Assembly: GCF_963675165.1 (NCBI RefSeq)
Contig: NC_087378.1
Coordinates: 334,562 to 398,561, forward strand
Direction of reading: 5' to 3'
DNA: 64,000 nt
DNA from: Halichondria panicea
Taxonomy: Eukaryota
Shown here: one piece after another, positions 45,901 to 46,620 of the stretch
Layout: each line of letters begins with the position of its first letter
How positions within the stretch are numbered: position 1 is the first letter of the stretch
Program-made: the position numbers and the translations under genes
The notes under the pieces: generated by a model
Told to the model about the DNA's origin: nothing
What the model saw: only the letters and a program-made list of their open reading frames with translations
Databases searched by the model: none

Positions 45901-46620
45901 CCAAGCAGTACAGCTTCACCCGAGCACCTGTCTCGACCACAAACCAGAGTGGGTGCTCTACAACGAGTTCGTGCTCACCACCAAGAACTACGTCCGCACC
46001 TGCACAGACATCAAGCCAGAGTGGTGAGTCTGTGCCATGACGTATCAGCTAGCTCTAGACATCAAGCCAGAGGAGTGGCAGGCATACTATGACATACAGC
46101 TAGCTTTAGACATCAAGCCAGAGTGGTGAGTCTGTGCCATGACGTATCAGCTAGCTCTATAGACATCAAGCCAGAGGAGTGGCAGGCATGCTATGACGTA
46201 ACAGCTAGCTCTAGACATCAAGCCAGAGGAGTGGCAGGCATGCTATGACATACAGCTAGCTCTAGGCATCAAGCCAGAGTGGCAGGCATGCTATGACATA
46301 CAGCTAGCTCTAGACATCAAGCCAGAGTGGCAGGCATGCTATGACATACAGCTAGCTCTAGACATCAAGCCAGAGTGGCAGGCATGCTATGACATACAGC
46401 TAGCTCTCAATATTGTGTATAGATTAAACCAGCCATACAGTCTATTGTTAGCTACTAGCTTGCATTGCTATAGTGATTAACCCTGTCCCCCCCCCCCCCC
46501 AGGCTGGTGAAGATAGCCCCACAGTACTATGACCTCGGTAACTTCCCACAATGCGAGGCAAAGAGGCAGCTGGAGAAAGTCAAGGCCAAAGTTGAACTGC
46601 AAAATCAAGGCATCTTTTGA
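39943..46620 (+). CDS. DHX15: ATP-dependent RNA helicase DHX15 / Prp43 (DEAH-box spliceosome disassembly helicase) orthologue; ~14 exons
   Basis: Exon 1 is [22 protein letters not shown] (human MSKRHRLDLGEDYPSGKKR), with donor GTACTC, joined in phase to exon 2 starting at 40343. Exon 2 ends ...[34 protein letters not shown] (motif I). Further exons carry [82 protein letters not shown] (DEAH), [75 protein letters not shown] and [22 protein letters not shown]. The gene ends ...[38 protein letters not shown], collinear with human DHX15 throughout. Confidence 0.95.
41805..42060 (+). mobile_element. tRNA-derived SINE-like element with a perfectly palindromic tail, in a DHX15 intron
   Basis: The tRNA-like head GTGTGGCTTAGTGGTTAGGGTGG (box-A-like TRGCTTAGTGG) ... 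GGTGTGGGTTCGATTC (box-B/T-loop-like GGTTCGA) is followed by a 64-bp perfect palindrome AGTTGGGGCGTCGCCCGGTTTCTGTGAAACGAAGTTTCACAGAAACCGGGCGACGACCCAACTT. A related, opposite-orientation fragment is at 14228-14345. Confidence 0.5.
46005..46395 (+). repeat. Intronic minisatellite: ~7 tandem copies of a 55-60 bp unit derived from the 3' end of the preceding DHX15 exon plus its 5' splice site (GACATCAAGCCAGAGTGG|TGAGTCTGTGCCATGACGTATCAGCTAGCTCTA)
   Basis: The exon ends ...TGCACAGACATCAAGCCAGAGTGG (coding CTDIKPEW) followed by GTGAGT. The unit ACATCAAGCCAGAG(GA)GTGGCAGGCATGCTATGACATACAGCTAGCTCTAG then repeats. One copy at ~46112-46160 restores the exact exon-donor junction CAGAGTGGTGAGTCTGTGCCATGACGTATCAGCTAGCTCTA. 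Confidence 0.9.

Follow-up and report, generated by a model that had tools for sequence, protein, structure and literature searches.

An exon-intron boundary minisatellite with one intact copy of the 5′ splice site in the last intron of the DHX15 gene of the sponge Halichondria panicea

Introduction

The repetition of a 5′ splice site by a minisatellite that spans an exon-intron boundary has been described in the human genes F7 (IVS7), IFI6, CBS, LMNB2 and PDGFA (Borensztajn et al. 2006, PLoS Genet, PMC1557585). In IVS7 of F7, the repeat unit measures 37 bp, the first monomer is made of 4 bp of exon 7 followed by 33 bp of the intron, and the number of copies varies from 5 to 9. The most upstream of these identical donors is the only one used, and the pseudo-sites become functional once the upstream ones have been inactivated (PMC1557585). 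According to the parts of that paper that deal with the other genes, intron 2 of IFI6 (6-16) holds 25 pseudo-sites, the first two of which are used constitutively, and intron 13 of CBS holds 15-20 repeats, with two pseudo-sites used besides the real donor, whereas in LMNB2 (100-bp unit) and in intron 4 of PDGFA (81-bp unit) the authentic donor alone is used (PMC1557585). Earlier experiments with duplicated donors had led to conflicting outcomes (PMC1557585).

Here, we describe a locus that belongs to this class of boundary-spanning minisatellites and lies in the last intron of the gene for the splicing helicase DHX15/PRP43 of the sponge Halichondria panicea, within an analysed stretch of 64,000 nucleotides (hereafter, the window). 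As in F7, the first monomer spans the exon-intron boundary and the donor is repeated in the intron, with a single acceptor downstream and a productive mRNA that derives from the most upstream donor (in the sponge, according to the RefSeq models). The sponge unit, however, includes 18 exon bases instead of 4, and only one of its seven downstream copies keeps the donor, whereas all 4-8 downstream copies of F7 keep an identical one. F7 is moreover a proven polymorphic VNTR with minigene data. IFI6 and CBS, as far as the sections of the paper on these genes go, share with the sponge the boundary-spanning arrangement and have first one or two pseudo-donors that are usable, as might be the case at position 46126, but they contain many intact pseudo-sites, whereas in the sponge the use of the copy leads to an immediate stop codon. 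LMNB2 and PDGFA, in the corresponding sections, are boundary minisatellites with longer units and exclusive use of the authentic donor; they differ in gene, unit size and lineage, and a loss of the donor in the copies is not reported for them there.

Two other phenomena are related to the sponge locus. Introns have reportedly been gained by tandem genomic duplication (Hellsten and colleagues, in 2011), a process in which, as in the sponge, a segment with splice signals is duplicated and the duplicate is absorbed into an intron; that process creates a new intron, whereas the sponge case is the expansion of an existing one. In exon 10 of MAPT, the 5′ splice site is masked by a local stem-loop. 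The bases of the sponge donor are likewise paired in a short exon-intron hairpin, although this hairpin is a thermodynamic prediction and is not conserved in a coral.

Results

The host gene and its last intron

The gene that carries the array is, judged by its product, an orthologue of DHX15/PRP43, as the first-pass annotation of this DNA had proposed. In a protein search, the protein assembled from the window is 100% identical to the H. panicea RefSeq entries XP_064383734.1 and XP_064383733.1, the latter being the longer isoform (737 aa), which differs from the former only in the N-terminus. This DEAH helicase is encoded by exon-like open reading frames on the + strand (~39900-46620), and when the RefSeq protein (P0121) is threaded onto the window, it fits exactly, in 13 exons separated by introns of the GT-AG type (Table 1). 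The similarity to DHX15/Prp43 runs over the full length, with the architecture of DEAH helicase, HA2 and OB-fold expected for this family (precomputed Pfam domains DEAD, Helicase_C, HA2 and OB_NTP_bind). Human DHX15 provides the best matches among solved structures (1284 bits, residues 50-731), and the identity to animal DHX15 orthologues amounts to 77-87%.

Exon 12 codes for ...VAHLERSG...TCTDIKPE plus the TG of a W codon, so that the authentic donor of intron 12 lies in phase 2 within this codon. Exon 13 supplies the remaining G and 38 further residues, and ends with a TGA stop (46618-46620). All the 3′ splice signals of intron 12 are outside the array, in a non-repetitive tail that ends with a tract of 14 C (46487-46500) and the AG acceptor (46501-46502). 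Both RefSeq isoforms read DIKPEW/LVKIAP (a slash marks splice junctions throughout), which means that the first donor is the one used in both models; this reading rests on RefSeq models, which favour open reading frames, and on the transcripts of related sponges.

Several acceptors of the gene follow pure poly-C tracts of 10-14 C, not mixed pyrimidine tracts (42310-42325, 45472-45487 and 46487-46502). Four of the 12 introns (5, 6, 8 and 9) open with a GT-/AC-rich micro- or minisatellite directly after the donor (42476-42590, 43029-43060, 43657-43700 and 44165-44200; for example AAG/gtgtctgtgtgtgtgtgtgtg), and many GT dinucleotides are consequently found 3′ of a used donor. Intron 1 contains, in its acceptor region (40270-40342, ahead of 40343), the perfect yeast-type branch-site word TACTAAC, after which the first AG is the used acceptor (caacag/C). 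Exon 12 also shows an internal similarity (45924-45952 versus 45996-46024, 76% over 29 nt, family D5), each segment carrying one of two PEW motifs conserved in all the DHX15 orthologues compared; this is an old similarity within the protein, separate from the array.

Table 1. Coordinates of the gene parts, repeat units and predicted elements at the 3′ end of the gene (positions within the window)
Feature	Positions	Strand	Description	Basis
DHX15 exon 12	45854-46023	+	170 nt	exact threading of RefSeq protein
Predicted RNA hairpin	46002-46035	+	34 nt, around the authentic donor	MFE fold
Minisatellite	46006-46407	+	8 units of 48-53 bp	Tandem Repeats Finder, unit comparison
Unit U1	46006-46056		type A	
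Unit U2	46057-46107		type B	
Unit U3	46108-46160		type A	
Unit U4	46161-46212		type B	
Unit U5	46213-46263		type B	
Unit U6	46264-46311		type C	
Unit U7	46312-46359		type C	
Unit U8	46360-46407		type C	
Type A (U1, U3)			AGACATCAAGCCAGAGTG/GTGAGTCTGTGCCATGACGTATCAGCTAGCTCT, donor intact	
Type B (U2, U4, U5)			GAG inserted, donor core exchanged for GCAGGCAT	
Type C (U6-U8)			without the GAG insertion, GCAGGCAT replacement as in B	
DHX15 intron 12	46024-46502	+	last intron, 479 nt	threading
Authentic 5′ splice site	46024-46029	+	GTGAGT, context GTG/GTGAGTCT	threading
In-frame TGA	46025-46027	+	directly after W if the first donor is skipped	reading of alternative donors
Exact duplicate of exon end and donor (U3)	46108-46159	+	52 nt	D3 100%, donor score 9.2
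Non-repetitive 3′ tail of intron 12	46408-46502	+	95 nt	sequence, threading
DHX15 exon 13	46503-46620	+	last exon	threading

Anatomy of the minisatellite

Tandem Repeats Finder reports a single head-to-tail array at the boundary, with a period of 48, 8.0 copies, 86% matches and a score of 544. With a length of ~400 bp, the array occupies most of the last DHX15 intron, to which it contributes 351 nt (~73%); without it, the intron would measure ~128 nt. As in F7, the unit falls in the range of ~10-100 bp, and the first one, which starts at 46006 with the last 18 nt of exon 12 (46006-46023), holds the real exon end together with the donor in use. The periodicity, the presence of exon-derived sequence and a 5′ splice site in the unit and the ~7 units downstream of the boundary (eight with the one that spans it) had all been recognized in the first-pass annotation. 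Its unit size (55-60 bp) and its end point (46395) need correction to 48-53 bp and 46407, and the junction that it read as GAGTGG/GTGAGT is in fact ...CCAGAGTG/GTGAGT, where 46023 is the last exon position.

The exon-derived 19-mer AGACATCAAGCCAGAGTGG has eight matches at up to 2 mismatches in the whole window, all of them within the array (starting at 46006, 46057, 46108, 46161, 46213, 46264, 46312 and 46360), versus 0 matches in 100 dinucleotide-preserving shuffles. For the intronic half of the unit there are 5 matches when up to 3 mismatches are allowed, versus 0 expected, and the repeat unit was not found elsewhere in the 64 kb. Minisatellites as such are common here: the window contains 18 arrays of period of at least 10, which make up 4.5% of its bases (roughly one per 3.6 kb), so that in this compact, intron-rich genome the start of one of them just within an exon is statistically unremarkable.

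The units follow the order A-B-A-B-B-C-C-C. Type C agrees with type A in all of the exon-derived bases (19/19), the 9 nt that follow them (TGAGTCTGT) are swapped for an unrelated stretch of 7 nt, CAGGCAT, and the last 23 nt are again alike (20/23, with 3 differences). Segment 46108-46159, in U3, is a 100% copy of 46006-46057 over 52 nt that include the exon end and the donor (family D3), which bears out the exact copy of the junction noticed in the first-pass annotation near 46112-46160. Thus, U1 and U3 match at 52/52 positions, and the units paired with them, U2 and U4, at 48/52. U4 has an A-like 3′ half (GACGTAACAG), which makes it a mosaic, and the near-identity of U6-U8 (47-48/48 in mutual comparisons) points to a recent amplification of a donor-less unit. 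At a larger scale, the similarity between 46033-46126 and 46189-46282 (94 nt, 95% identical, family D1) indicates that a higher-order duplication is superimposed on the 48-bp period. All units close with the near-palindrome TACAGCTAGCTCTA, plausibly an aid to slippage.

One intact donor copy and the outcome of its use

All GT dinucleotides between 45990 and 46470 were scored with a position matrix derived from the 12 donors of the gene itself. The real donors score from 5.5 to 11.0, and the authentic donor of intron 12 reaches 9.2, with 8/11 matches to the U1 consensus. The same values are obtained for the GTGAGT of U3 (46126-46131), which is located 102 nt downstream and whose surroundings are identical to those of the donor at 46024 from -18 to +34, whereas the remaining GTs of the array score between -4.0 and 3.3. 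The array therefore contains one intact duplicate donor, and not the “array of cryptic donor sites” suggested in the first-pass annotation. In the other six of the seven downstream units, one common replacement of GTGAGTCTGT by GCAGGCAT has removed the donor. GC-type donors and the weak GTs of the B and C units were also considered as splice sites and ruled out on their matrix scores. We likewise discarded a 16-nt poison micro-exon in U3 (tttag/ACATCAAGCCAGAGTG/gtgagt), the acceptor of which has almost no pyrimidine tract and which would also give TGA.

Any donor past 46024 yields TGG TGA, with a product that terminates in ...TCTDIKPEW after 699 of the 737 aa and lacks the C-terminal 38 residues, conserved in the animal orthologues compared. 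Since the codon directly after W is TGA, the use of the copy would be unproductive and would not create a new protein isoform. As in a poison splice site, the premature stop precedes the last junction, and in a transcript with the 46125/46503 junction it would lie 99 nt upstream of it. The mammalian rule for NMD asks for a stop more than 50-55 nt before the last junction, and by this rule such a transcript would be NMD-sensitive. No annotated isoform uses 46126; both RefSeq isoforms use the first donor.

A predicted hairpin at the authentic donor

The end of exon 12 (46002-46009, GCACAGAC) is perfectly complementary to the intron at positions +5 to +12 (46028-46035, GUCUGUGC), and the predicted hairpin pairs all six bases of the GUGAGU. 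Its minimum free energy is -15.9 kcal/mol (z -3.64, a stability reached by 0 of 200 shuffles), in a folding window that was picked after the fold had been seen; a 50-nt window around the donor gives a z of -1.64, which is not significant. Opening positions -3 to +6 of the authentic donor would cost 10.1 kcal/mol according to these predictions, the highest value among the 12 donors of the gene, versus 1.8-7.6 kcal/mol for the others. Because the repeat unit begins at -18, within the left arm of the stem, U3 has been copied without the outer stem, and its donor would need just 4.1 kcal/mol to open, an ordinary value. In a coral, the corresponding intron sequence (GTCTTGAA) is not complementary to the exon arm, and the pairing is not kept. 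The hairpin could be due to chance, it could have acted as a DNA hairpin that seeded the slippage, or it could be a real modulator of donor choice.

The whole intron 12 does not fold better than its shuffled versions (z +0.93). A sole Rfam match, to mir-4446 (20.7 bits versus a threshold of 79), was taken as a chance hit, and a loose resemblance of the B-unit segment GAGGAGTGGCAGG to the core of human minisatellites is probably a coincidence.

An old intron with a lineage-specific array

The orthologous exon of the coral Orbicella faveolata terminates in ...GACATCAAGGCTGACTG/GTGAGTCTTG, and coding resumes after an intron of 435 nt at tttcag/GCTGGTGAAG. This intron has the same position and phase as intron 12 of the sponge and the same donor, TG/GTGAGTCT, and its first eight bases are those of type A; it shows neither a tandem array nor a second donor copy, so that conservation of the extra site across species was not found in this comparison. 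In many other animals, genomic open reading frames run through ...KPEW into an unrelated read-through that starts with L, Y or F, which is what TG/GT(T/A)... predicts. These observations together indicate that the intron is old and the array lineage-specific, and that type A is the ancestral state. Intron gain by tandem duplication was rejected on the same grounds, as the position and phase of the intron are shared with Orbicella and the read-through frames occur in many animals.

Two relatives, 87% (L002) and 81% (L001) identical in protein, show no intron at this point; the former is a transcript-length contig of a related sponge that reads GACATCAAGCCAGAATGG/CTGCTG without insertion. Both the RefSeq isoforms and the transcripts of related sponges carry DIKPEW/L(V/L)K, also without insertion. 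No record of the gene was found for Dysidea avara.

Regarding other individuals of H. panicea, a look-up with the open reading frame of exon 4 retrieved host contigs from ENA sponge metagenomes and one NCBI assembly, which are 98-99.9% identical and end ~4 kb upstream of the array. Two exact-pattern scans of JGI metagenome contigs gave 0 matches to the unit junction or to the exon end plus donor. Exact-protein look-ups found no match for the two RefSeq isoforms, nor for the open reading frame of exon 12, a downstream one and two within the array, and a protein search with the exon 12 frame returned other species only, none above 93% identity. The array is probably a point at which assemblies from short reads break.

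Discussion

Origin of the array and competing explanations

We consider it quite likely that the array is a near-neutral product of slippage that is spliced out with the intron. Replication slippage or unequal exchange would have produced tandem copies of a segment of ~50 bp, composed of 18 nt from the exon end and the first 33 nt of an old intron that originally measured ~128 nt, and these copies would later have been amplified and reshuffled. The simplest reading is slippage at the boundary, put forward already in the first-pass annotation, or its duplication, since the exon part of the unit consists of coding sequence that another sponge and a coral also conserve. Lying 3′ of the authentic donor, the copies would belong to the transcribed intron and would be lost with it upon splicing of the first donor to the single acceptor at 46502; as everything 3′ of that donor is intron, the array could persist, presumably without any dedicated function of its own. 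Six of the seven downstream copies would descend from one founder unit, and the replacement of its donor core would have left them inert in splicing. U3 would be a recent and still perfect duplicate of the donor, and its use would lead to a transcript that is probably degraded, or else to a helicase truncated by 38 residues. By analogy with F7, we infer that the upstream donor is dominant and that 46126 would account at most for a minor unproductive fraction. Strong competing donors can reportedly favour the one nearer the acceptor, as in the work of Eperon and colleagues, and this, together with the conflicting results of the duplicated-donor experiments, makes upstream dominance in the sponge an expectation, not a certainty.

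Some points weigh against a fully inert array. The authentic donor is predicted to be the least accessible in the gene, which on its own would favour the unproductive copy, and constitutive use of the first downstream pseudo-sites is described for IFI6 and CBS (PMC1557585). Both are in line with regulated unproductive splicing, or a decoy, in which the copy at 46126 competes with the hairpin-masked donor: its use would insert 102 nt with an immediate stop, and the ratio between the donors would set the level of DHX15, possibly in feedback on the very helicase that polices the use of splice sites. The equal scores of the two donors, the complete pairing of the first one in the predicted hairpin and a stop with NMD geometry by the mammalian rule are in line with such competition. 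We nevertheless regard it as unlikely, since conservation is missing (the coral has no array, nor an intron start able to pair with the exon arm), the annotated isoforms never use the copy, the stability of the hairpin comes from a window chosen post hoc, and the identical downstream sites of F7 are silent (PMC1557585). Furthermore, there is one competent copy only, very recent by its looks (52/52), which makes a long-standing regulatory role unlikely. A more elaborate version, where RNA structure would decide between masked donor and open copy and so switch DHX15 from productive to stop-containing transcripts or back, is to our mind very unlikely. It would amount to a young autoregulatory or dosage-tuning circuit, caught soon after minisatellite duplication had given rise to it, in the gene of a helicase that itself rejects suboptimal splice sites.

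A different departure from neutrality would be that the copies are mildly harmful, so that purifying selection acts on extra donors and donor-dead units are those that became amplified; U3 would then be a young, possibly polymorphic and slightly deleterious allele. The pattern of the units has some of the marks expected: six of them are donor-less through one replacement placed exactly on the donor core, between flanks that remain 87-100% identical, the dead unit is the one recently amplified in U6-U8, and the intact U1 and U3 are identical over 52 nt when U2 and U4 have already diverged. This focus of the A/C divergence on the donor core fits selection against extra donors, in which case the copies would not be fully neutral. 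On the other hand, the amplification of a dead unit could be a matter of chance, and the common replacement represents one founder event, which allows no statistics on donor loss, so we find this explanation improbable compared with slippage near neutrality. That the array is an artefact of the assembly, or part of a dispersed repeat with DHX15-like sequence by chance, seems to us very improbable. Assemblies are error-prone at tandem arrays, and the look-ups did not find a second assembly of this stretch; however, the array is made of distinct unit variants in an ordered pattern, unlike a uniform expansion, its unit occurs nowhere else in the window or in the JGI metagenome contigs, and its first unit is a real in-frame exon end that encodes the conserved DIKPEW.

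Significance of the locus

The near-neutral reading would make of this array a non-bilaterian example to be added to the small and long-known set of minisatellites that start in an exon and copy its donor. It is set apart by an exon part of 18 nt, by six copies out of seven that have lost the donor and by the immediate stop that the use of any downstream site would bring. An old intron of 128 nt has thereby grown nearly four-fold through the duplication of its own 5′ end, and the protein has remained undisturbed. The two donors, identical from -18 to +34, also offer a natural test case, as one is predicted to be structured and is productive while the other is predicted to be open and is unproductive. 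They could show whether a sponge, too, follows the upstream-first rule that mammalian cells have established for the choice of 5′ splice sites. Were the use of the copy substantial, the dosage of DHX15 in H. panicea would be tied to a repeat that is possibly polymorphic.

Other repeats of the window

The largest array of the window is a G-rich minisatellite of 37/75 bp at 204-959 (~10-20 copies, score 1241). Another tandem repeat, at 56541-56728, has a unit of 60 bp, GAGAAAGATGGAGAGCGTTCCAAAGCAAAAGAAAAGAGTGCCGATGCTAAACCACGAAGA, in 2.5 copies with 98% matches; its unit is a multiple of three and looks like the coding sequence of a lysine/glutamate-rich protein repeat in a neighbouring gene. Two palindromic words are over-represented, TAGCTA (42 observed outside the array versus 14 expected, with a shuffle maximum of 23) and AGCTAGCT (7 versus 0.9 expected, with a shuffle maximum of 3), and these words occur within four of the 18 minisatellites (4032-4158, 21497-21599, 37623-37739 and 46006-46407).

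Just upstream of DHX15 there is a foldback-type element of ~1.2 kb (38504-39744), whose inverted arms of 489 nt (38547-39035 and 39212-39700) are 92% complementary and 176 nt apart. Two contigs from other individuals of H. panicea (L004 and L005) lack the element, with 38503 joined directly to 39745. The element looks like a polymorphic insertion.
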